Translations under genes and position numbers: made by a program
Shown here: piece after piece, positions 15,275 through 44,054 of the stretch
Position numbering within the stretch: position 1 is the stretch's first letter
How the letters are laid out: every line of letters begins with the position of its first letter
Origin: a virus
Taxonomy: Duplodnaviria > Caudoviricetes
Length of the DNA: 44,054 nucleotides
Reading direction: 5' to 3' (one strand)
Virus record (IMG/VR): IMGVR_UViG_3300048853_000116
Span: 1 to 44,054 of that record
The notes under the pieces: model-generated
Database searches by the model: none
Told to the model about the DNA's origin: nothing
What the model saw: the letters and a program-made list of their open reading frames with translations, nothing else

Positions 15275-15747
15275 CCGAGCTTCCTCCGGATGAAGTCGGC
15301 CGTGGTCTCCAGGATGTCGCGCGCATTCTCGGCCGAGAGGCCGAGGAAGGGGCGCGCCGGCAGGACCGCCTGCATGGCGAAGACCAGGGCATTGCCCAAG
15401 CGGAAGGCGAGACGCTTGGCATTCTTGGGCTTGATGGTCGCGCCGTATTGATGCGGGCGGGCATAGATCAACCCTGAGCCGACCACGATCGACTCGCCGA
15501 TGACGGCATAGTCGATCGAACGCGAGAGATTGCCCTCGCGGTAGAGGATCGGCGTGCCGGACTTGTTCTTCGGCCAGGCCGTGCCGTCCGGCGCGGTCTT
15601 CTCCTCCTCGATCCGGCGCCGGGTCTGTTGTTGGACGAGGCGCGCCAAGCCTTCGAGCAGCGTGCCGGTATCGAGCGGCGACAGGCGCGCCAATAGCGCC
15701 TCGACGCCGTCAAGCCCGGTGACGTGGACCTCGACGGCGAGGCTCAT
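15271..15747 (-). CDS. Virion morphogenesis protein (Mu gpG / P2 S family)
   Basis: APDGTAW, YARPHQYG, LPARPFLGLS motifs. Confidence 0.9.
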   Translation of the reverse strand: MSLAVEVHVTGLDGVEALLARLSPLDTGTLLEGLARLVQQQTRRRIEEEKTAPDGTAWPKNKSGTPILYREGNLSRSIDYAVIGESIVVGSGLIYARPHQYGATIKPKNAKRLAFRLGNALVFAMQAVLPARPFLGLSAENARDILETTADFIRRKLG

Positions 15748-16169
15748 AGCCCACCGCCCGTGCGGAACAGGCGCGGCTCCGCGAAGAAGGCCGCGCCGCT
15801 TTCCGACACCGCGCCGCTGCCGCCGGTGTCCGCCGGCGGCTCCAGCTCGTCGATCTTCGCCTTGCCGGCGGCGATGTCGCGCAACATGTCGAGCGCGATC
15901 TTGGCGCGCTTAGCGATTTCCTCCGTCAGGCGATCGCCGGACGGGGCCAGCTTCCAGCAGGCGATGTCGATGGTGAAGCCGACCACGATGCTCGGTACGG
16001 CTGCGAGGGGCAGCGGATAGCGAACGGCAAGATAGCCGTTGACCATCGCCGAGGCGTCGTCGAGCGCCCGTGCCACGGCGAGGTCGATATCGACGTCGGC
16101 CGGGACGAGCGTCTCCAGGTGGGCGGCGCCATAGCGCGCCTCGATGTCATGGCGAGTGGCATAAGGCAT
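15744..16169 (-). CDS. Head-tail adaptor (Mu gp36 / DUF1320)
   Basis: MPYAT..D, ALDDASAMVNGYLAVRYPLPL, DIA motifs. Confidence 0.9.
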   Translation of the reverse strand: MPYATRHDIEARYGAAHLETLVPADVDIDLAVARALDDASAMVNGYLAVRYPLPLAAVPSIVVGFTIDIACWKLAPSGDRLTEEIAKRAKIALDMLRDIAAGKAKIDELEPPADTGGSGAVSESGAAFFAEPRLFRTGGGL

Positions 16170-16321
16170 GGCGGGCCTCGATCGGTGCGGTCCCGCTTGC
16201 GCGGGGCCGCGGCAGGCGGGGCGGCGGGCTGAGCCCCTACGGGCCGTGTGGACCGGTCACCGTTCCCATCGGGTGCTGGGGGCCTTGCGAGCCGTACCAG
16301 ACCGCCCCTCTCGGGTATTCC

Positions 16322-16609
16322 TCAGTCGCGGTCGGCCGGCGTGATCGGCGAAACCGACAGCAAGGGGTCGGCGAGCAGCGCCTTCATGCGGGCTTCGCGC
16401 TCCTCGTCGGTCGCGCCGAGATCCGCGGCGGTGAGCTGGCGCGGCTCTTTGCCGAAGGCGAGGCCGGCGCGGCGCCGGGGACCGGCGGGCGCGACGACCT
16501 GAAGGACCGGGCGCTCGTCGATCGCCGCCGCGGCGTCGGCCGCCGGCGGCTCGGGGGTATTGGCGCCGTTGCCGGCGCTCGTGGCGTTCTTCCCCACATT
16601 CGTCTCCAT
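16322..16609 (-). CDS. Small Mu-like protein after capsid gene (HI1506/gp35-like)
   Basis: RRRAGLAF...LLADPLLSV motif. Confidence 0.7.
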   Translation of the reverse strand: METNVGKNATSAGNGANTPEPPAADAAAAIDERPVLQVVAPAGPRRRAGLAFGKEPRQLTAADLGATDEEREARMKALLADPLLSVSPITPADRD

Positions 16610-16655
16610 CGTCAGAGTGGCGGAGCGGCCGCGGCCGGCGCCGCGGCGGCGGGCG

Positions 16656-17552
16656 TCAGTCGAGAAGCGGCGCTTCGAGGATCTCGACCAGGTTGCGATC
16701 CGTGTTGGTGGCGCCGTTTTCCAGGCGCTCGGCCAGGATGATGTCGCGGGCCTTGTCGCCGTTGCTCACCCCGACCACCAGCAGGTTCGGGTTGATGCCG
16801 AGCTTGCGGCCTTCATCGGACGTGAGCGCCCGCATGGCGTTGCGCGCCGCGCGCAGGTTGTCCCTGGTCAGCTCGGCTTTCGAGCCGAAGGCCATCTGCC
16901 AGAAGCCGAAGCCGACATTGCAGCGGCTGTAGGTGCCGTAGACGAACTCGTTGCGGTCGAAGACGCGCTCGTCGTCCGGATTGTCCTTCGTCACGAACTC
17001 GGGCTTCTTGCGGTCCTGGAAGATGAGCGGCTTCAGCGCTCGCGTGGTGTCGAGCAGGAACCAGGGCGCGCCGGTGCCGTCCTGCACGTTCGAGACGGAG
17101 GCCGCTTGTCCGGTCGCCGGGTCGGTCACGGGATGATCCGCGTCGAAGAAATTCTGCCCGTCGTAGCAGGCGGTTGCAAAGCCGCGCTTCAGGAGATCGT
17201 AGACGAGTTCGTCGGGATGGGACGCCGCTGCCCGGCCCATCTCCTCCATCATCGGCGCATAGATGCCGAACTGATCGTCCTCGATCTTGGGACGGGGCAC
17301 CGCAACCGTCGACTCCCATTCCTTGTTCTTGATCGAGTAGCCGTGCTCGGCGAGGTTCTTGACGACGCGCGGGCCGATCCATTCCCGCATCTTCGGCCAG
17401 TCGCCCAGCCAGGCATAATCCTCGGAGCCGGTCGACGACGGCACGACGGTCGCGATCCGGGTATAGGTCGGCTGCACCCCGGCGAAGCCCCGCTGGAAGC
17501 TTGCTTTATAGCCCCGCTGCAGGTCGCGGAGGTTCGACGAATTGATCAACAT
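16656..17552 (-). CDS. Major capsid protein (Mu gpT)
   Basis: YAWLGDWPKMREWIG, IEDDQFG, CYDGQNFFDADHP, GFWQMAFGS motifs. Confidence 0.96.
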   Translation of the reverse strand: MLINSSNLRDLQRGYKASFQRGFAGVQPTYTRIATVVPSSTGSEDYAWLGDWPKMREWIGPRVVKNLAEHGYSIKNKEWESTVAVPRPKIEDDQFGIYAPMMEEMGRAAASHPDELVYDLLKRGFATACYDGQNFFDADHPVTDPATGQAASVSNVQDGTGAPWFLLDTTRALKPLIFQDRKKPEFVTKDNPDDERVFDRNEFVYGTYSRCNVGFGFWQMAFGSKAELTRDNLRAARNAMRALTSDEGRKLGINPNLLVVGVSNGDKARDIILAERLENGATNTDRNLVEILEAPLLD

Positions 17553-17589
17553 GGTTCGGTCCTCTCCGAGGCCTTGCCTCGCCCTGAAT

Positions 17590-17664
17590 TGGTTGCGGGG
17601 GCCGGGATCGAACCGGCGACCTGAGGGTTATGAGCCCACCGCGCTACCGCTGCGCCACCCCGCC
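17590..17664 (-). tRNA. tRNA-Met(CAT), initiator-like
   Basis: 75-nt cloverleaf GGCGGGG..GGG CTCATAA CCC..GTTCGATC..CCCCGCAACCA with encoded CCA, three G-C pairs at the end of the anticodon stem and a 1-72 mismatch. Confidence 0.93.
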
Positions 17665-17671
17665 GAAAGCG

Positions 17672-18070
17672 TCAGAATTCGACCCAGACGCCGCCGATCT
17701 CGACCTCGCGCACGATGCCGGCGCGGGAGCGCGTGCCGGCGCCGTCCGTCTTCGCCACGGTCTCGTCGTCGACGACGAAGCAGTCGGTGCCGACCTCGGC
17801 CTGAGTGATCGGGTCGGTTGCGCTGTTCGCGAAAAGGAAGGTGCCGCGCTCAACACGCACGCGGGCGGCGCCGGCGGCACCCGCCGCATTGTCCACCGTC
17901 TCTTCGGCGCGACCGACAGCGACCAGCCCCGTGCCGGTCTTGCCGGGGCGCGCATATCCGGCCTCAAGCACGACAAGCGCGCCGGCCATGATGTGCACGC
18001 CTGCGGCGACCTTGTAGGCCCACTGCCCGGAATGCCGGGCCGGCGTGTTGCGTTCTCTCGTGAGCGGCAT
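17672..18070 (-). CDS. Capsid decoration/cement-like protein
   Basis: 132 aa between protease and capsid; VDN, VVDDETV, GVWVEF motifs. Confidence 0.75.
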   Translation of the reverse strand: MPLTRERNTPARHSGQWAYKVAAGVHIMAGALVVLEAGYARPGKTGTGLVAVGRAEETVDNAAGAAGAARVRVERGTFLFANSATDPITQAEVGTDCFVVDDETVAKTDGAGTRSRAGIVREVEIGGVWVEF

Positions 18071-18101
18071 GCGCTCCTCCTGGTCAGTTGGGACGGTGAG
18101 G

Positions 18102-18587
18102 TCAGGCCTTGGCGAACTCGGCCTCGTCGAGGCCGAGCTGGCGGCAGAGCGCCTTCTGTTGGTCCGTCAGAGCGCCGGCGCCGGGATCGGGATCGTTCTT
18201 CAGCTTCGGATCGGCGCCGGGCTGCAGGACGGCGGGCATCGCCTCGATCGCCGCTTTCGTGGACTCGAAGGCGTTGAGGGCCATCTGGAGGAAGTGGTCC
18301 TTCGCGGCCGGGGCCACCTTGCCGGCCTTCACCGCCTCGTCCACCAGGTCGTTGGCCCGCTTCTCATTGGCCGCGCGTTCGAAATCCGTGATCTTCTGGC
18401 GCGCCTCATTGAGCTGAGTGACGACCTGGTCGTGCTGCGTCCGGGGGATGAACTTCTCGATCGGCGGGTGCTCGGCCGCGTTCAAGGCAACCGTCTTCTC
18501 GCTCTTGAGCGCATTGATCGCCACCACGGCGTCGGCCGCCGATGCGGTCTCGGCAAGGCCGAGGGCCGCCAGGATCTCTTTCAACAT
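18102..18587 (-). CDS. Nested in-frame scaffold protein (Mu gpZ-like)
   Basis: Internal ATG (MLKEILAALGL) preceded by GGAG; same arrangement as Mu I/Z. Confidence 0.55.
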   Translation of the reverse strand: MLKEILAALGLAETASAADAVVAINALKSEKTVALNAAEHPPIEKFIPRTQHDQVVTQLNEARQKITDFERAANEKRANDLVDEAVKAGKVAPAAKDHFLQMALNAFESTKAAIEAMPAVLQPGADPKLKNDPDPGAGALTDQQKALCRQLGLDEAEFAKA

Positions 18588-19100
18588 GGGAGGCTCCGGG
18601 TTGTCGGCGCTCCGGTTGAGCGCGGTCAGATAGAGGTTCGGACGATGGACGAGCCCCGCGGACGCCAGCGCCAGGATCTCCTTCGTCTTGGGATCGATGA
18701 GGAGCGCCGGCGAGATGAAGCGGTATTCCCGATTGCCGACCAGCTCGGCGCCGCGCGTCGTCCAGCTCACGGTGCCCCAGATGCCGTCGTCGGCCAGCTC
18801 CAGGCGTTCGATCCACCCCGCCGCCGGCCGCGGCGTGCCGTCCGGGTCCTGCTCGGCGCCGTGCTCGTAATCGACGGGAATGGGTAACCCGCTGGCATTG
18901 AAGGCGGCGATGACCCGCTGCGGGTCGCTCAGCCGGAAGCGGCGGCCGTCACGCCCCTGGATCTCGGGTCCGCGCGGCAGGAGATGAATGCGAGCCGGGG
19001 CACCGCCTTCCGCCTGCAGCGCCAAGCCGAGCGCCTCACACCGCGGAAGATCCGTGGCAGGCGCTTGGTTCAGGGCAATGCAGAAGGGGTGCGTGGTCAT
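18102..19100 (-). CDS. Prohead protease (Mu gpI) with C-terminal scaffold region
   Basis: GRDGR, IPVDYEH, AAGWI, EYRFISP, GLVHRPNL motifs. Confidence 0.93.
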   Translation of the reverse strand: MTTHPFCIALNQAPATDLPRCEALGLALQAEGGAPARIHLLPRGPEIQGRDGRRFRLSDPQRVIAAFNASGLPIPVDYEHGAEQDPDGTPRPAAGWIERLELADDGIWGTVSWTTRGAELVGNREYRFISPALLIDPKTKEILALASAGLVHRPNLYLTALNRSADNPEPPMLKEILAALGLAETASAADAVVAINALKSEKTVALNAAEHPPIEKFIPRTQHDQVVTQLNEARQKITDFERAANEKRANDLVDEAVKAGKVAPAAKDHFLQMALNAFESTKAAIEAMPAVLQPGADPKLKNDPDPGAGALTDQQKALCRQLGLDEAEFAKA

Positions 19101-19138
19101 GCCGGCGACGATGGCCGGCTGCGGCATCCGTCAACACG

Positions 19139-19152
19139 GATGCACGTGCATC
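19139..19152. promoter_or_regulatory. Perfect palindrome GATGCACGTGCATC, candidate late-activator site
   Basis: About 40 bp upstream of the protease ATG; related copies at 6636 and 32812. Confidence 0.55.
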
Positions 19153-19390
19153 ACCGAGGACGATTTGAGGGCTCGATGCTGGCGATCATCGCCCGTCCGG
19201 GTGGCGCCCGCAAGTCATGCCTTCAGCGTGGCCATTAAAGGGGTTTCTAAGGGGGCTGGCCGGCAACTACTGCCGCGCCTGCGCCGGTCGCCTTAACCGC
19301 AGCCTTGGCCGCGTCGTTGGCGGCTTTCGGCTGAGTTAGGCATTGTGCATAGGCCTTAGGTCCACGCGTCAGCGATACTGCCCTCGCAAT

Positions 19391-21079
19391 CTACTCTGCG
19401 GCTCTGGCCGTTCGGTCAGGATCCACGCGCAAGTACTCGTACATCGCCTCGCGCCGGAGCCCTTCGGCTGGAGTTGTTCTCACAAGCTGGCGGTTCTCGG
19501 GTTCATAGCTCATGCCGTCCACGAGACATGCCTCGGCGACGCGTGAGTTGTGAGCATATAACCAGGCGTAATTCCTTCTGACCCACGAAATAACGGCCAC
19601 ATGGAGCGCGTAACTATCTCTATCAAAGCTGCGTTTTCTCGGCTCGAAGCCCAAAACGTTGAGGCAAAAGCACAGAAAACCCGCTCCTTTGAAGTTTGGG
19701 ATATCTCCCATCCGTAGAACTTCGTTATAGATTAATCGCCGGACCTTGAATTTAACGATATTTCCCGCTGGGCTCGATAGATGATAACCGAACAGCTCGC
19801 TCCAGACGGTGTTATGTTGGATCCACCAACAATGCCATCTTGGTGATTTGACCGACGATGCGGAAAAGATCAATTCAGCAATAAGCTGCGCGAGGTGATC
19901 GTAGAAGGATCTTTCCGAGAACCATCCGTTTTGATCCCGGACGCGCAGCCGAACAGCCTTTAAGGGCGCCTTTTTATCAAGTATTTCCACCGCTTTCTGA
20001 ATGAAGCTGGTAATGACGCGCACGCGCGCCAATACGTCCCTGTCCGGGCTATCGTTGGCTAGGCCGTTGAGGGTGCGGAGATCTGATACCGCGTGCTCAA
20101 GATAGTGAATGGCGCGATTGAGGACCGGTGAGTTGCTCCCGAAGCGCTTCTCGACATAATCTTGGAAAGTCAAAAGAGTGATCCGGCAGTAAGCTTTCCA
20201 ATTTTCAGCATGCCACTTGGACCAAGTAGAAAGGTCGGGATCCAGAAGCGTCCCAATTGCTTCAACCATTTCATAATTAGCAAACATCGCTTGGCTGAGC
20301 GGCTTATGATAGCCTATCAGCCCGGACTCATAGCCTTCAGTCTCATGATAGAGAAATGAATCCGTATTGGTTAGTGCCTCTGTTACGAGATTTTTGGCGA
20401 ATGTCCCGACATGTATCTCATATTTTTCTGTATCTCCGATTTCTTCAAATAACGCTAATGCAGTTAATGGCGACGATGAAACTATTTCGCGACATAGTCG
20501 CCTGTCAGCGATCAGAAGAAGGATGTCGCGTGCGTATATTTCTGTCTTTCTCAGTTCTGCTTCAGTTGTGAAAAACCGTCGATCTGGCGCGTAGTGGACA
20601 AGTTCTCGGGTCGAGTAGATCAATTCATCAGCTATGACCGCCAACTCGGTGGCTGATCCCTTTATCACGTAGTGATATAAGGTCCGGGCGTAACGCTCAG
20701 CGTTTCGTTTGCTGAAAGATGGAGGTCGGAGGAAAGCGAACCATGCCCAAGTAAGGAATGTGACAAGGAATATGCCAGCGAGAAGCGCTTGCCATGATGC
20801 TTGATCGAGAGGGATCCTCCGAGGTACGAGCCAACCCTCCGCACGCCAGAGGTCGGTTAAAACCGTTAGAGCGCCAATCATGGCGACAACGAGGAAGGTC
20901 AGGCCCTGCAGTGGTAGGGGGGCGGTCTTGATCCGAAATCGATACCTGACGTCGGCAATTGTCCATGCGAGCACCATAAGCGCAAGGCCCGCTAGGAACT
21001 CCGAGAATCCAAAAAACTTGGACCCGTTGGAGTTCACTGCAACGAAGCACACCCCCAGAAAACATGGCTGTTCCGGCAC
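19391..21079 (-). CDS. Accessory hypothetical membrane protein (about 3 N-terminal TM segments plus large soluble domain)
   Basis: Long ORF, visibly AT-richer than the phage core; GTG start at 21079 is inferred. Confidence 0.8.
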   Translation of the reverse strand: MPEQPCFLGVCFVAVNSNGSKFFGFSEFLAGLALMVLAWTIADVRYRFRIKTAPLPLQGLTFLVVAMIGALTVLTDLWRAEGWLVPRRIPLDQASWQALLAGIFLVTFLTWAWFAFLRPPSFSKRNAERYARTLYHYVIKGSATELAVIADELIYSTRELVHYAPDRRFFTTEAELRKTEIYARDILLLIADRRLCREIVSSSPLTALALFEEIGDTEKYEIHVGTFAKNLVTEALTNTDSFLYHETEGYESGLIGYHKPLSQAMFANYEMVEAIGTLLDPDLSTWSKWHAENWKAYCRITLLTFQDYVEKRFGSNSPVLNRAIHYLEHAVSDLRTLNGLANDSPDRDVLARVRVITSFIQKAVEILDKKAPLKAVRLRVRDQNGWFSERSFYDHLAQLIAELIFSASSVKSPRWHCWWIQHNTVWSELFGYHLSSPAGNIVKFKVRRLIYNEVLRMGDIPNFKGAGFLCFCLNVLGFEPRKRSFDRDSYALHVAVISWVRRNYAWLYAHNSRVAEACLVDGMSYEPENRQLVRTTPAEGLRREAMYEYLRVDPDRTARAAE

Positions 21080-21620
21080 GTTGTTTTTCCCCCGTGTAAT
21101 CGTCCGGCTCAGGACAATAGCTACCGGGCGGCGGATAGCTTCCGCAACCCTAGCATTCCGGTCGCTGGCTAGACCATTCACTCCTACCGCGCTATGATTT
21201 TTCAAGCGCCCGAGCCATCGCGTCGCGAGACGCGCCGATGAACCGGACAAGAGCCGCGTGGGGGTTATCGGCCCACCGGGCGCATCACCTGCCATTCTGC
21301 TGATTCGGCTTTGTACCCGTCTAAACTTGCCGCGAAGGGTAGACGGAATGTCCGCGCTGTACCCCTAAGCGACCTTCGCACGTCGAAGCACCGGCGGCAG
21401 CCTTGCGCCCAATTTCAGTCGGCGGCAGAGCTCGTGCCCAGCACCAAAAGCCGCCGGTCCGTTTTGAGGACGAGAATGGCAACAACGGGGAAACGGTCTG
21501 GCAGGTTTTGAGCGGTTACGCCGGGAAAGTTGCCCTTCACCTCACATTCCCGGAAATATGCCCTGGTAAGATTCGTTTTTCTCTGCTGGCGTGGAATGCT
21601 CGCCATGGGAGCCAATCAGA

Positions 21621-22112
21621 ATGTCCACGATGACCGATCCGACGCCTGCCATGGTGAGCATGGAGCAGGCTCTGCGCGCCGGGGGGATGCGGCTTGAACC
21701 CAGTCATCTCGACACGAACCTGGGGACTTTTCTCGACTTGGCCAACGGCAAGCGTCGCTTTTCCTGCGCCTACCGCCATGGTGACACGATCACCGCATTC
21801 GCCACCTTGATCATCGTCGATCAGATCGATGGTCTGCCCGTCTTCCACGCCGGGTTCGCGGTGCCGCCTCCATATCGCGGACAAGGGCGCGCGAAGGCGG
21901 TCCTGAAGGCCGCGATCGCCGAGTTGGCCGCCGGGCTAGGCCGGGCCAGCAAATCGGCCTTCTATATCGAAGCGGTTGTCGGCGTCGGCAACGCGGCTTC
22001 GAATGCCGTATGCAGGTCGGTGCTGACGGAGAAGCCGGAGGAGATCACCGATAGCGTCTCGGGACAGCCAGCTCTGCACTACATCCGCAGGGTCGAGACC
22101 GTCCGCGCATGA
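21621..22112 (+). CDS. GNAT-family N-acetyltransferase
   Basis: Acetyl-CoA motif VPPPYRGQGRAK and GNAAS motif. Confidence 0.8.
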   Translation: MSTMTDPTPAMVSMEQALRAGGMRLEPSHLDTNLGTFLDLANGKRRFSCAYRHGDTITAFATLIIVDQIDGLPVFHAGFAVPPPYRGQGRAKAVLKAAIAELAAGLGRASKSAFYIEAVVGVGNAASNAVCRSVLTEKPEEITDSVSGQPALHYIRRVETVRA

Positions 22113-22642
22113 CCACGGCGGACTGGGCCCTCGTAGTGTCGATCTGCTCGGCCGCACTATCCCTGTTCAGCCTGGGCTGGAACGTGTGGTCGAAGTGGGT
22201 CCATCCAAAGCCCAAGATCAAGGTGACTTTCGCCGTCATGAGCATGATCGACGAGAATGGGATGTCCCCGCCTTTCCTTGCCGCCACCGCGACGAACTTC
22301 GGACCAACCGACACGACTCTCAAGCAGATGATCGGTCGCAGCCGGGCGCCGTGGTGGTGCCTGAAGTGGGGTCATCGCCGCTGGCGCTGGGGCATCATGA
22401 ACAACGTCAGGACGCCCCAGGAGGCCATCGCCGAGAGCTACCCGTACTCAGGGCTTCCACATAAGCTGACAGTCGGCGAGGAGTTCTCGGCTTACACGAC
22501 CGCCAAGCATCAACCGCTGCGCGACACCGGCATCATTGACGTTGGGTTTGTCGACGTCTTCGGACGCTATCACTGGGCGCCAAGGAAAGCCGTCAGGGCC
22601 GTGGTGAGATCGATCCGGAAAGACTGGCCGATAAGGGCCTAA
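22109..22642 (+). CDS. Hypothetical protein with N-terminal TM helix
   Basis: ATGA overlap with the GNAT stop; WALVVSICSAALSLFSLGWNVW anchor. Confidence 0.75.
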   Translation: MTTADWALVVSICSAALSLFSLGWNVWSKWVHPKPKIKVTFAVMSMIDENGMSPPFLAATATNFGPTDTTLKQMIGRSRAPWWCLKWGHRRWRWGIMNNVRTPQEAIAESYPYSGLPHKLTVGEEFSAYTTAKHQPLRDTGIIDVGFVDVFGRYHWAPRKAVRAVVRSIRKDWPIRA

Positions 22643-22659
22643 GAGGCGGGAGCTCTGGA

Positions 22660-23042
22660 GCGTACACCGGGGGCAATGCCGAGATCCGCCACCGCCGCAC
22701 TGGCGCCGTCTACGAAATCGAAGCCGACGAGCTTGATTGGGAGCAATTTGGAGGCGATGAACGGGGCATGGGGCCCGAGCTCCGCTATGAGGCCGTCGTC
22801 GAGCATCCGCATCCGGAATGCTCACAGGGGCTCTGTGAGAATACCCGCTCGGGATCGAGAACCGCAATGACACCGATGTCGGCCCGCACGAGGTCCTCAC
22901 CCTAGGGTTTCCGATCTTGAACCTGATGCCCCACGTCGAAGCAATGCTGGAGGCGGACTACGTCAACCGGACCGCAGATATGATCAAGGATTGCCTCGAG
23001 GGCGTCGAGCGAAAGGTCAGGGCGTTGGAGGCATCTGATTAG
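22660..23042 (+). pseudogene. Degraded gene (ERGMGPE...WEYPLG-type small domain)
   Basis: No start codon, frameshift near 22810, TGA at 22836-22838 where Trp is expected. Confidence 0.5.
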
Positions 23043-23181
23043 GCCTCCTGCCCAATCTTATGTCCTTTGCCGCCTTTCCGGGCGCCCAGCCTATATGTCA
23101 CCCCGCCGTCCGCGTGATCCCCTTCCTGAAGACCGCGGACCCGTGCATTGTAGCGCGGGAATTAGGGGGATATCGGCGACG

Positions 23182-24801
23182 ATGAGGATCACTCGGGTCC
23201 AGATCCAGCACTGGCGGTCGATCAAGTACATTGACTTCTATCCGCAAGACATCTGCGTCCTCGTCGGTGCGAACAATGCCGGCAAGACGAACATCCTGAG
23301 TGCGATTAATTTCCTTATCGGTGATCGGTGGCCGATGCCGGGCAACCTGGACGATTCCGACTTCTACGATCGTGACAGGGACCGCGACATCAAAATCCGA
23401 ATCGATTTCAAGGATGCACATTTTAGCTTCATCGATTTCGATACCGCACGGCTCCAGTACACCCTCCAAGCTGGAGACCGGCACGGCAACATCGTGAAGG
23501 GCTTCAACAACACGATGCGGGAGGAGCTCGCATTCGCGTATGTCGATGCGAGCCGGAACTTTGAGAGGCAGTTCAGCGCCTCGCGCTGGTCCTTGTTTGG
23601 CCAAGCCCTGAGGTTCCTGCATTCAGAGCTCAAGCACAACGGGGAGCAGCTCGGTAAGCTGAGAAAGACGCTCGGCGAGGCGCACCAACTACTTCAAACA
23701 GATCTTTACAAGGGTTTCGAGGAGAACCTTCGCGAAGCATTCGCCGCTCAGCTTAAGACGGCGCGATACGACGTCGCCTTCGAGTTCAGGACGATCGAGG
23801 AGACCAATCTCTACCGCAGCCTCTATCCGACTCTGATCGAGCGCGGGAGCGCACGCAGCCCGGCGGAAGTCGGCTCGGGGGTGAGGAACGTCTTAGTTCT
23901 CGCGCTCTTCCAGGCGTTCGCGAAGTCTTTCCGGGGCGGCGCCATCTTGGGCATCGAGGAGCCCGAGTTGTATCTGCACCCTCACGCGCAGCGGAGCTTG
24001 ATGCGGCAGTTCGAGGAACTCGCTGCGGCTGGAAATCAAATCTTCATCTCATCCCACAGCGTCCACTTCCTCGATGTCTCGCGTAGCGATCGCATAGTTC
24101 TGGTCGAGCGATGTGAGGACGATGAGGAAGAGGTCTGCACGCAGGTGGCGATCACCTCCAGTGACGAATTGCTCGCGCTGAGAAAGTCGCTACATCCCGA
24201 GCGGGAGATGACGGTTGAGTCCATGCGGAGCTTTATTCGCAACATCCGCACAGCTGAGATGACAGAAGCATATTTCGCGCGGTGCGTGGTGGTGGTCGAG
24301 GGCGCGACCGAGCGCGAGGCACTGCCGATCTACGCCAGGGCGCTAGGTCTCGACTTCGACCAATCCGGCATCTCGATCGTGGCGGCCGGCAGCAAGTCGG
24401 CAATCGACACCTTGGTCCATCTCTATGGGGCCCACGCCATACGGCGGTTCGTGATTTTCGACAACGACGTTGAGAATGATCAGGAGAAAACCACAAACCG
24501 AACCCTGTGCCGGCTGCTAGGCCAGCCCGAAGCAGACGTCCCGCCAGCTCAAATTCATGGAGATTTCGCCATCATCGATGGCAACTGGGAAAAGCAGTTC
24601 CAAACGGAACTTAATGCGATGGAGGCAGGGCTCTACGCGAAGCTCGAAGCCCAGGCCCGAGCCGCTCTTGGCATCGGACCGCGGCGAAACAAGCCTTTGG
24701 TTGCTCGCTTCATCGCTGAGAGCCTCATTGAGAAGGCCACGATCCCCGAGTTCGTTAGGACGATCATCACGAAGATCAGCGCCAAGGTTGCTTCAGCTTA
24801 A
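23182..24801 (+). CDS. OLD-family ABC-ATPase-TOPRIM nuclease
   Basis: Walker A GANNAGKT, Walker B IEEPELYLHP, H-loop SSHS, TOPRIM VVEGATE and DND; ATG with AGGGGG RBS. Confidence 0.92.
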   Translation: MRITRVQIQHWRSIKYIDFYPQDICVLVGANNAGKTNILSAINFLIGDRWPMPGNLDDSDFYDRDRDRDIKIRIDFKDAHFSFIDFDTARLQYTLQAGDRHGNIVKGFNNTMREELAFAYVDASRNFERQFSASRWSLFGQALRFLHSELKHNGEQLGKLRKTLGEAHQLLQTDLYKGFEENLREAFAAQLKTARYDVAFEFRTIEETNLYRSLYPTLIERGSARSPAEVGSGVRNVLVLALFQAFAKSFRGGAILGIEEPELYLHPHAQRSLMRQFEELAAAGNQIFISSHSVHFLDVSRSDRIVLVERCEDDEEEVCTQVAITSSDELLALRKSLHPEREMTVESMRSFIRNIRTAEMTEAYFARCVVVVEGATEREALPIYARALGLDFDQSGISIVAAGSKSAIDTLVHLYGAHAIRRFVIFDNDVENDQEKTTNRTLCRLLGQPEADVPPAQIHGDFAIIDGNWEKQFQTELNAMEAGLYAKLEAQARAALGIGPRRNKPLVARFIAESLIEKATIPEFVRTIITKISAKVASA

Positions 24802-33950: not shown

Positions 33951-34364
33951 TCAGAAGTTAAAGCTACCCTGGTTGCCTTCCGCTTTGCGAAGGCGCTGCT
34001 TGGCCCGAATGACGGTGGACCTATCGACGCCGACGAGCCGTGCTGCTTCATCGATTGAACAGTTATCTGTGATCGCGGCTTGAAGAGCTCGAGCTCTCGT
34101 GCGTTGCTGCTCGCGATATCCGCCCTGCGGCCCGAGCGGGATCGACAGCTGCAGGCCGGTATTCCTGACCTTGAAGTGTTCGCAGATCGTGCGCGCTGTC
34201 TCGATCCCCACTGCCTCCACCAGCCAGTGATCGCGCGTGAGGCGTTCCGGCGTCGGGAAGGACGCGCGCGTGCCGCCTTTCGCTTTCGCGATGGCAAGGG
34301 CAGCGTCGAGGCCGGCCACCTCGGCGATCTCGGCGAGCAGCGCCGGCAGCCAGGAATAGCTCAT
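33951..34364 (-). CDS. Mor/C-like late transcription activator
   Basis: LPALLAEIAEVAG..AALAIA...GG N-terminus and C-terminal HTH; last gene before the lysis region. Confidence 0.8.
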   Translation of the reverse strand: MSYSWLPALLAEIAEVAGLDAALAIAKAKGGTRASFPTPERLTRDHWLVEAVGIETARTICEHFKVRNTGLQLSIPLGPQGGYREQQRTRARALQAAITDNCSIDEAARLVGVDRSTVIRAKQRLRKAEGNQGSFNF

Positions 34365-43607: not shown

Positions 43608-44054
43608 TCAGAACTTCACATTGAGCACGCCCTTGACCTGCTGGTCCTGGGCGTCCTGGGCAAACTGGGCCGAATAGGCGACGCCGAGGGTGACGGCCGG
43701 GCCGATGTCGAGGTCGGCGCCGGCTTTGAGGACAAGCGCGTCCTCGGCCACCGGCAGGCCGGCCACCGTGAAGGGCAGGCTCCCGCCGGCGAAGAGGAAG
43801 GACGCCGTCGGGCTCGTGTCGCCGAAGGCATGCTGCCAACCGAGCGTGCCGCGCAGCGTCAAGGCCGTCGCTTCACCCACCACCCAGCGCTGGGCGGCGC
43901 GAAGGCCGAGCGTCGTGAAGGTCACGTCCTCGCTGCCGCTGAAGCCGAAGAGCCCGGCCGCCCCGCCCTGTTCGGTGAAGGCATCGGTTTCGAGGTTCAC
44001 GTATGCGAGGCCCGCGAAGGGCTCGAGCGCCAGGCCCCCCAGGGCAACCCGATA
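43608..44054 (-). CDS. Host autotransporter beta-barrel, 3' end (partial)
   Basis: Frame open to the window edge; LEPFAGLAYVNL, GTLGWQHAFGD, terminal VKF. Confidence 0.9.
   Translation of the reverse strand, partial: YRVALGGLALEPFAGLAYVNLETDAFTEQGGAAGLFGFSGSEDVTFTTLGLRAAQRWVVGEATALTLRGTLGWQHAFGDTSPTASFLFAGGSLPFTVAGLPVAEDALVLKAGADLDIGPAVTLGVAYSAQFAQDAQDQQVKGVLNVKF

Follow-up and report, generated by a model that had tools for sequence, protein, structure and literature searches.

An initiator-type tRNA gene beside the major capsid gene of Mu-like phages

Phage-encoded initiator tRNAs are already known as members of tRNA arrays, and lone CAU tRNAs are already known from phiLM21-like prophages. 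A single tRNA, nearly always with a CAU anticodon, is listed for 15 of 25 phiLM21-like prophages (PMC12429752, Table 1). The rescue tRNAs of lytic phages include tRNA-Thr acting against P2-OLD, tRNA-Lys against PARIS AriB and tRNA-Tyr against retron Eco7 (PMC12445682, PMC10264068), and phage tRNAs rescue the toxicity of P2-OLD, PARIS AriB and retron PtuAB (PMC12445682). The host initiator tRNA is itself a target of VapC and AtaT (PMC7180214, PMC8522696), VapC cutting at what the literature places as the stem-loop junction (PMC7180214, PMC8522696), and an alphaproteobacterial VapC cuts tRNA-fMet in a host that has one copy of the gene (PMC8522696). In open-access PubMed Central and bioRxiv text, covered as listings and the starts of abstracts, we came across no account of a transposable phage with an initiator tRNA among its head genes, and the word tRNA is absent from the comparative papers on transposable phages PMC4378225 and PMC8705779. 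Here, we describe such a gene and its relatives.

The tRNA gene and the head operon around it

The window, that is, the whole 44,054-nucleotide stretch of DNA analysed here, is one complete 44-kb Mu-like provirus, and IMG/VR classes the record as a provirus with 100% completeness. It holds the genes by which we recognised Mu-like carriers, namely those for MuA (phrog_310), MuB (phrog_296), a Mor/C-type protein (phrog_836) and proteins matching PF10124 and PF10123, together with genes for a repressor, terminase, portal, protease, gpT and a contractile tail; all of its late genes lie on the minus strand. An autotransporter beta-domain fragment at the right end (43608-44000) is probably host DNA flanking the provirus. 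The nearest named relative of the window gpT comes from Blastochloris tepida (67%), and the named relatives of the OLD gene described below come from Bradyrhizobium, Mesorhizobium and Rhizobium; because the nearest named capsid and OLD relatives belong to these genera, the host is likely a member of the Hyphomicrobiales.

ARAGORN, run over the whole window, called a single tRNA, a tRNA-Met(CAU) of 75 nt with an encoded CCA, at 17590-17664 on the minus strand, and Rfam model RF00005 scored it at 57.9 bits against a cut-off of 29 (E 4.5e-10). The full cloverleaf with CCA proposed in the first-pass annotation is thus seen by ARAGORN, by Rfam and in the feature table, and covariation among relatives agrees. 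Also as that annotation had it, the gene starts 7 nt past the stop codon of an upstream virion structural protein gene (17672-18070, minus strand, 132 aa; phrog_1731, E 7.9e-45) and ends 37 nt ahead of the ATG of the Mu-like major capsid protein gpT (16656-17552, minus strand, 298 aa; PF10124, E 1.5e-125; phrog_371). Further upstream lies the Mu-like head protease/scaffold gene (18102-19127, minus strand; PF10123, E 8.2e-60), the first head gene past an accessory block. The position of the tRNA on the sense strand among head genes, so close to the upstream stop, upholds the proposed co-transcription with these genes, and a Mor/C-type late transcription activator (33951-34364, minus strand; phrog_836, E 7.9e-18) is presumed to drive the operon. 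A scan of 15600-19500 for sigma-70 promoters, which is uninformative for activator-dependent late promoters, returned none against 0.4 expected.

The 7-nt spacer between the upstream stop codon and the tRNA (17665-17671, minus strand) is pyrimidine-rich and presumably serves as a leader removed by RNase P. The 37-nt gpT leader on the other side (17553-17589, minus strand) carries a Shine-Dalgarno-like run 7 nt before the ATG and, after excision of the tRNA, would form the 5' end of the gpT message. The fold of this leader was no more stable than that of shuffled sequences (z -0.63), and its hairpin, which is not significant, is absent from the related locus L001.

As had been claimed, the tRNA bears the marks of an initiator, with G29:C41, G30:C40 and G31:C39 in the anticodon stem, G2:C71 and C3:G70 in the acceptor stem and an open 1:72 position (G1xA72); it also has G4:C69, G5:C68, A73 and the host anticodon loop. 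A 1:72 position without a Watson-Crick pair is a criterion for initiators (PMC6393288, PMC11231383), G2:C71, C3:G70, G4:C69 and A73 are elements recognised by Fmt (PMC9976931), and the three anticodon-stem pairs are P-site determinants, with G30 essential (PMC5389676). Comparison with tRNA-fMet of Salmonella and of alphaproteobacteria reproduced each deviation reported earlier, that is, G1, C11:G24, U28xU42 and a short D-loop (7 nt against 9 nt), and added others, among them U27G/A43C, A57G, A59U and U60C. G1 serves an initiator tRNA as well as C1 does. R11:Y24 is counted among the Fmt elements (PMC9976931, PMC11231383), and because this purine11:pyrimidine24 pair is missing, we file the gene as an initiator-type variant rather than as a canonical tRNA-fMet. 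It is 82% identical to a Salmonella metZ-type copy (L176) and 79% to an alphaproteobacterial one (L409), compared with 66% to a host non-initiator CAU tRNA (L376). We considered tRNA-Ile2 (with lysidine) and elongator tRNA-Met as identities and rejected both on the open G1xA72, G4:C69, G29:C41 and the low identity to L376; the determinants of tRNA-Ile are C4-G69 and C29-G41 (PMC9976931).

By fold energy alone, the tRNA is not distinct from shuffles in this GC-rich DNA (z 0.36), and it is the covariance-model score and the covariation among relatives that argue against a chance origin. The cloverleaf lies 2.0 kcal/mol above the predicted minimum, compared with 0-0.4 for host copies, so that early decay of the window tRNA is conceivable, and U28xU42 could be a sign of it. 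A Logan contig of one DNA run spans 16400-18400 with zero differences, although that run may be the window's own source, and part of the tRNA used as an exact query in IMG/VR gave no match. A C stands directly before G1 in five of the six G1 copies in our collection (position 17665 of the window, L253, L346, L349 and L261; three of the five are kin), compared with 3 of the 16 others. An additional G may have displaced the former C1 into the leader, so that the mature 5' end may be either G1 or the C before it.

Distribution, conservation and decay among relatives

The survey of Mu-like relatives that the first-pass annotation had proposed showed that the window is not unique. Protein searches with the window gpT gave 80 IMG/VR loci, 60 GTDB loci, 80 metagenome loci and 54 more from two samples of 401 genomes, which were clustered at 97% capsid identity and counted where both flanks were covered. 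A sense-strand tRNA(CAU) lay beside gpT in 8 of 176 capsid clusters in these capsid-anchored searches, at the default threshold of ARAGORN (relaxed thresholds gave many false calls); about 95% of the clusters examined thus have no such tRNA. A search with the L253 capsid found it in 5 of 18 clusters, L253 included. In all, 22 distinct intact copies, the window's among them, were found in Mu-like head operons, a number that is a lower bound, with tRNA-pattern scans covering IMG/VR. Seven copies separate the virion gene from gpT; the 15 others come after gpT, ahead of the gp36/neck genes. The closest phage with DNA context, L001 (76%), carries the tRNA in the same position, with compensatory changes. 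The protein collection has capsids that are closer still (77-84%), but gives no DNA context for them.

Near gpT in 197 protein-anchored clusters, tRNAs with an anticodon other than CAU were limited to two weak ARAGORN calls, neither of them credible, and the CAU tRNA was the sole tRNA of the genome in all nine carrier records read whole or nearly whole. When Rfam was run over 50 whole Mu-like records picked by capsid, only two phage-internal tRNAs exceeded the cut-off, both of them head-module CAU tRNAs; the scan also returned one tRNA-Gly in a host flank and one sub-threshold tRNA-like piece. Sixteen of the 22 copies begin no more than 11 nt past a stop codon, with U-rich leaders, and so must be cut out of the late message.

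Conservation among the 22 copies is concentrated at the initiator identity elements. CAU, G2:C71, G4:C69, G5:C68 and G30 are invariant, and C3:G70 is present in 21, A73 in 20 and CCA in 21. Position 1:72 is a mismatch in 17 copies and U:A in the other 5, never G-C or C-G, compared with 40 G-C/C-G pairs and no mismatch in 69 non-CAU phage array tRNAs. With R11:Y24 as the exception, what is conserved coincides with the determinants that have been published for MetRS, Fmt and the P site (PMC9976931, PMC5389676, PMC6393288, PMC11231383). Other positions vary. N1 is G, A or U in six copies each and C in four (C1 in 8/8 host copies), the D-loop is 7 nt long in 17 of 22 (9 nt in all hosts), and 11:24 is C-G in 11, A-U in 5, G-C in 5 and G-U in 1, so that R11:Y24 is lost in half of the copies, four of these having been found by a pattern that forces C11:G24. 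The host pair U27:A43 is retained in only two copies and C28:G42 in 11 (8/8 in hosts). The host anticodon loop is kept in 15 copies, the window's among them, and A38 is altered in six. Nine of the copies were first found by tRNA patterns in IMG/VR, which force some features; the conserved core is nevertheless not an artefact of those patterns, because the 12 copies reached by capsid searches only, 8 with the window gpT and 4 with that of L253, share it.

The stems covary, 95.9% of 462 cells being paired, with two-sided changes at 11 of 21 pairs; none of 500 shuffles reached the score, a control that is inflated by the relatedness of the copies. Mean identity is 77% among the phage copies and 79% between phage and host copies, whereas it is 97% among eight host copies. 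In three genomes, the prophage tRNA is only 77-83% identical to the host's own tRNA-fMet. As read from the aligned copies, the identity elements are under purifying selection, and the tRNA has very probably been selected as a working initiator tRNA rather than left as att-site debris, because the identity elements are kept, the stems covary and identity to same-genome host copies is low. The initiator-like identity proposed at first pass, resting on CAU, G2:C71, C3:G70, the open 1:72 and the three G-C pairs, agrees with this. We had entertained att-site debris or recent capture as an origin, and both were ruled out by the same conservation, covariation and 77-83% identity. The earlier claim that the gene is not an att site was likewise confirmed in the window itself, where a scan of 54 ORFs found MuA and MuB and no integrase, and where the tRNA lies mid-genome, with 17.6 kb on one side and 26.4 kb on the other.

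In a FastTree capsid tree of 201 tips, which is enriched for carriers and from which L124 and L261 were excluded as having no full capsid match, 23 tips have an intact or broken copy, with 14 changes compared with a shuffle mean of 22. Carriage is thus common to kin, yet spread over about 11 separate groups, and the tRNA has been lost repeatedly among phages that are 79-95% identical in gpT. One clade illustrates this. It contains intact copies in L253, L346 and L349, a copy in L345 on the other side of gpT from that of L346, a copy in L355 with the T-arm deleted, an acceptor remnant with ACCA in L344 and a plain hairpin at the tRNA spot in L350 and L351. Also in this clade, the copy of L251 / L343 (about 2860-2976) has an insertion of about 36 nt, with a 9-bp hairpin, that interrupts the anticodon stem on its 5' strand; the acceptor, D and T arms are intact. 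All three broken copies (L251, L355 and L344) retain both acceptor strands and the 3' ACCA. Absence or decay in relatives, which the first-pass annotation regarded as evidence against a function, was thus found in part: most relatives have no such gene and some have a decayed one, yet 22 copies are intact and covary. On the sequences at hand, the pattern of gain and loss is that of an accessory gene with conditional benefit.

Several other elements came to light in the survey. In other Mu-like prophages, tRNA-shaped elements lie antisense to late genes, upstream of the neck or protease gene (L206 4971-5045, L221 4743-4817, L335 1123-1202 and L498 1501-1620, all minus strand); they have credible acceptor and T arms and odd or missing anticodon arms, and that of L498 consists of tandem pieces. 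In the Mu-like locus L124, a gene for a DNA-binding protein (about 2213-2488), whose product we take to resemble HU, stands in the head module directly before the tRNA.

Outside the Mu-like phages, we examined 32 loci with a lone fMet-like tRNA (from 40, with 8 short or redundant ones dropped). Seven have a head, packaging or virion neighbour within two ORFs, two have a major capsid gene, and the remainder lie near replication, recombination, lysis or unknown genes; because so few are near virion or packaging genes, the placement beside the capsid gene is shown for Mu-like phages only. In non-Mu head modules, a lone initiator-like tRNA lies one gene past the major capsid gene in L098 (2497-2571) and L250 (2454-2524) and before a protease/scaffold-like gene in L237 (1526-1599). 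Mesorhizobium phage vB_MseS-P1 (PP232116.1; L175 6210-6284) has an unannotated initiator-like tRNA(CAU) inside annotated gp13, in the early region of an integrase phage.

Possible functions of the capsid-side tRNA

In a small temperate phage that transposes, a lone tRNA for the start codon cannot be explained by att-site repair or by codon compensation. The explanation that fits best, to which we give about an even chance, is that the gene yields a working fMet-tRNA that backs up the host pool when this is cut, modified or exhausted during capsid synthesis. The tRNA would be transcribed from the Mor/C-activated late promoter, its gene being amplified along with the replicating genome, and would be cut by RNase P at G1 and trimmed at the 3' end to the encoded CCA. 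Host MetRS would then charge it through the CAU anticodon, Fmt would formylate it by way of the open 1:72 with G2:C71, C3:G70, G4:C69 and A73, perhaps more poorly without R11:Y24, and G30:C40 would allow its delivery to the P site. The weakest step is the benefit, which would be conditional on hosts that attack tRNA-fMet. Such a conditional benefit would account for a gene that is patchily carried, that decays and that has diverged wherever a position is not essential. However, drift predicts that divergence equally well, the family has no common signature of escape (15 of 22 copies keep the host loop, six change A38 and 11 keep C28:G42), and Shigella phages are reported generally to avoid tRNA-fMet (PMC10264068), which counts against a back-up role.

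The first-pass annotation had proposed a late-expressed, nuclease-resistant tRNA. A late-expressed functional tRNA is the best reading of the sequences, whereas resistance is upheld only in part, by one candidate escape change, U28xU42, at the site cut by P2-OLD. The window copy gives no sign of escape from VapC, since its host anticodon loop and three G-C pairs are unchanged; we take the VapC cut in tRNA-fMet to fall at 38/39. Nor does it give a sign of escape from AtaT, the acceptor stem being host-like apart from position 1.

Alternatively, the tRNA might act through dosage. It would then be a working initiator tRNA that lets more initiation take place on those late genes that are translated most, independently of any attack on the host. 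This would conserve the same identity elements, and it is favoured by the position of all 22 Mu-like copies next to gpT, by the one or two tRNA-fMet copies seen in many Hyphomicrobiales genomes (drafts undercount them) and by the host anticodon loop of most copies. A general benefit nevertheless fits badly with carriage in 8 of 176 clusters and with repeated loss among close relatives, and it leaves unexplained why so few copies keep the host U27:A43, so that we regard it as rather unlikely. Proposed at the outset was also a processing signal, in which the tRNA fold would serve mainly as an RNase P/RNase E cut that parts gpT from its neighbours and tunes capsid stoichiometry. The proximity of most copies to a stop codon means that maturation must cut the late message, and the broken copies, with their acceptor helix and ACCA, as well as the hairpins of L350 and L351, are in its favour. 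The claim is weakened by the variable side of gpT on which the tRNA lies, which differs between L345 and L346 of a single clade, by an invariant anticodon and G30, neither of which RNase P needs, and by the restriction to CAU where any isotype would do; we consider this function improbable.

A third alternative, also raised at first pass, is a decoy, an abundant cleavable mimic that would absorb fMet-targeting toxins and spare the host tRNA. Late co-transcription would supply the abundance, and the window copy, with its host loop, three G-C pairs and host-like acceptor stem, has the appearance of such a mimic. Yet Fmt and P-site determinants are kept, whereas the presumed nuclease contacts at 27-29 and 41-43 vary freely, and protection from P2-OLD came by replacement and not by competition (PMC12445682), which makes a decoy very unlikely. 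Very unlikely, too, is neutral cargo that plays no part in initiation, be it a host tRNA gene that was captured or a tRNA of the elongator Met or Ile2 type. Its rare, patchy and often decaying occurrence would suit cargo, but the compensatory changes at 11 of 21 pairs already largely refute it, the divergence from same-genome tRNA-fMet speaks against recent capture, and an elongator or Ile identity is at odds with the 66% identity to the host non-initiator CAU tRNA, the absence of C4-G69 and C29-G41 and the open 1:72.

The accessory block (19391-24801) lies between gpF and the protease gene, has 57% GC compared with 65% for the window, and contains genes for a 634-aa protein (phrog_25374), a lone GNAT (21591-22112, plus strand), a 177-aa membrane-anchored protein and a stand-alone OLD-family nuclease. 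The accessory region that holds anti-CRISPR genes in Pseudomonas Mu-like phages presumably also sits before the protease gene. Its anti-CRISPR content is described in PMC4378225. We considered the GNAT as an AtaT and rejected it, there being no PADLOC or NCBIfam match. Among 39 low-GC ORFs, chosen crudely from ten carrier genomes, none matched a tRNA nuclease or toxin family in Pfam.

The OLD-family ATPase-Toprim nuclease of this low-GC block (23182-24801, plus strand) matches PF20469 and PF13175, PADLOC Old (E 4.1e-44) and PDB 6p74 (E 7.4e-32). P2-OLD cleaves within a paired CNG motif, behind C28 and C40, and the phage tRNAs that resist it have a changed motif and a shorter stem (PMC12445682). 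The enzyme also cuts E. coli tRNA-fMet in vitro, the C28-ended 5' fragment having an MS area of 3.0e7 compared with 2.0e4 without enzyme (PMC12445682, Table S4). Against a role of fMet tRNAs in escape from it, the P2-OLD rescue screen showed no enrichment of five coliphage fMet tRNAs (PMC12445682, Table S2). Of the 110 cells that make up the anticodon stems of all 22 copies, the U28xU42 of the window is the single non-standard one; it breaks the CNG motif while leaving the anticodon loop and the stem-loop junction cut by VapC unchanged. The window OLD nuclease is a candidate partner of the U28xU42 change, a lead resting on one case. The window OLD protein was matched in none of 18 carrier records, PF20469 in none of 16 other carrier records (of these 16, 9 are 90% or more complete; the window served as positive control), and relatives of the window OLD were not found in IMG/VR scans, so that the link stays at that one case. 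As an explanation for the whole family, self-immunity to OLD was rejected, since none of the other carrier records scanned has an OLD.

One could envision a bolder scenario, in which OLD amputates tRNAs against rival phages, the late-operon U28xU42 tRNA is self-immune so that capsid synthesis completes while the host initiator pool is destroyed, and the roughly 11 Mu-like lineages mark a widespread defence directed at tRNA-fMet late in infection. U28xU42 would then remove a CNG cut site that the host initiator tRNA cannot drop at G30:C40. We hold this conjunction to be a long shot, but the window does give a sharp single prediction that links the OLD nuclease and position 28.

The set is a test bed of one isotype in one operon, with 22 natural alleles that map the positions a working initiator tRNA can lose, including N1 and 11:24. 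A single clade holds versions that are intact, moved, interrupted or reduced to a remnant. If the tRNA indeed backs up the host pool, these alleles could be used to fish for host systems directed against tRNA-fMet.

Comparison with known systems

The window tRNA resembles bacterial tRNA-fMet in its CAU, open 1:72, G2:C71, C3:G70, G4:C69, G5:C68, A73, G30:C40 and host anticodon loop; it differs in having G1 for C1, C11:G24 for A11:U24, a 7-nt D-loop, G27:C43 and U28xU42, and in lying within the late operon of a phage, where it has no promoter to itself. Temperate phages with their own tRNA are also found in tRNA-dependent lysogeny, where the phage tRNA replaces a host tRNA broken by integration (PMC10865867), whereas the window has MuA and MuB, no integrase among the 54 ORFs scanned, and its tRNA mid-genome.

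Like the rescue tRNAs of lytic phages, the window tRNA has an anticodon arm that has diverged from the host isoacceptor. Its broken CNG motif and shortened stem resemble the two-factor pattern described for P2-OLD resistance (PMC12445682), although the likeness is limited, half of the Mu-like family keeping the motif. The rescue tRNAs are elongators in arrays of large lytic phages whose rescue has been tested, whereas the window tRNA is a lone initiator-type tRNA of a 44-kb temperate phage and a candidate for rescue at most.

The Sinorhizobium phiLM21-like prophages likewise have a lone CAU tRNA, unrelated to the integration site, in an alphaproteobacterial temperate phage; they are integrase phages, however, and the Mu-like carriers transpose and have the tRNA gene flanking the capsid gene (PMC12429752). 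The initiator tRNAs in arrays of large phages, those of T5-like coliphages (PMC12445682, Table S2) and of L240, L242 and L255, share the open or weak 1:72, the fMet-type acceptor stem and divergent D and anticodon arms. They sit among many isotypes, whereas the tRNA beside the window capsid gene is the only one of its genome.
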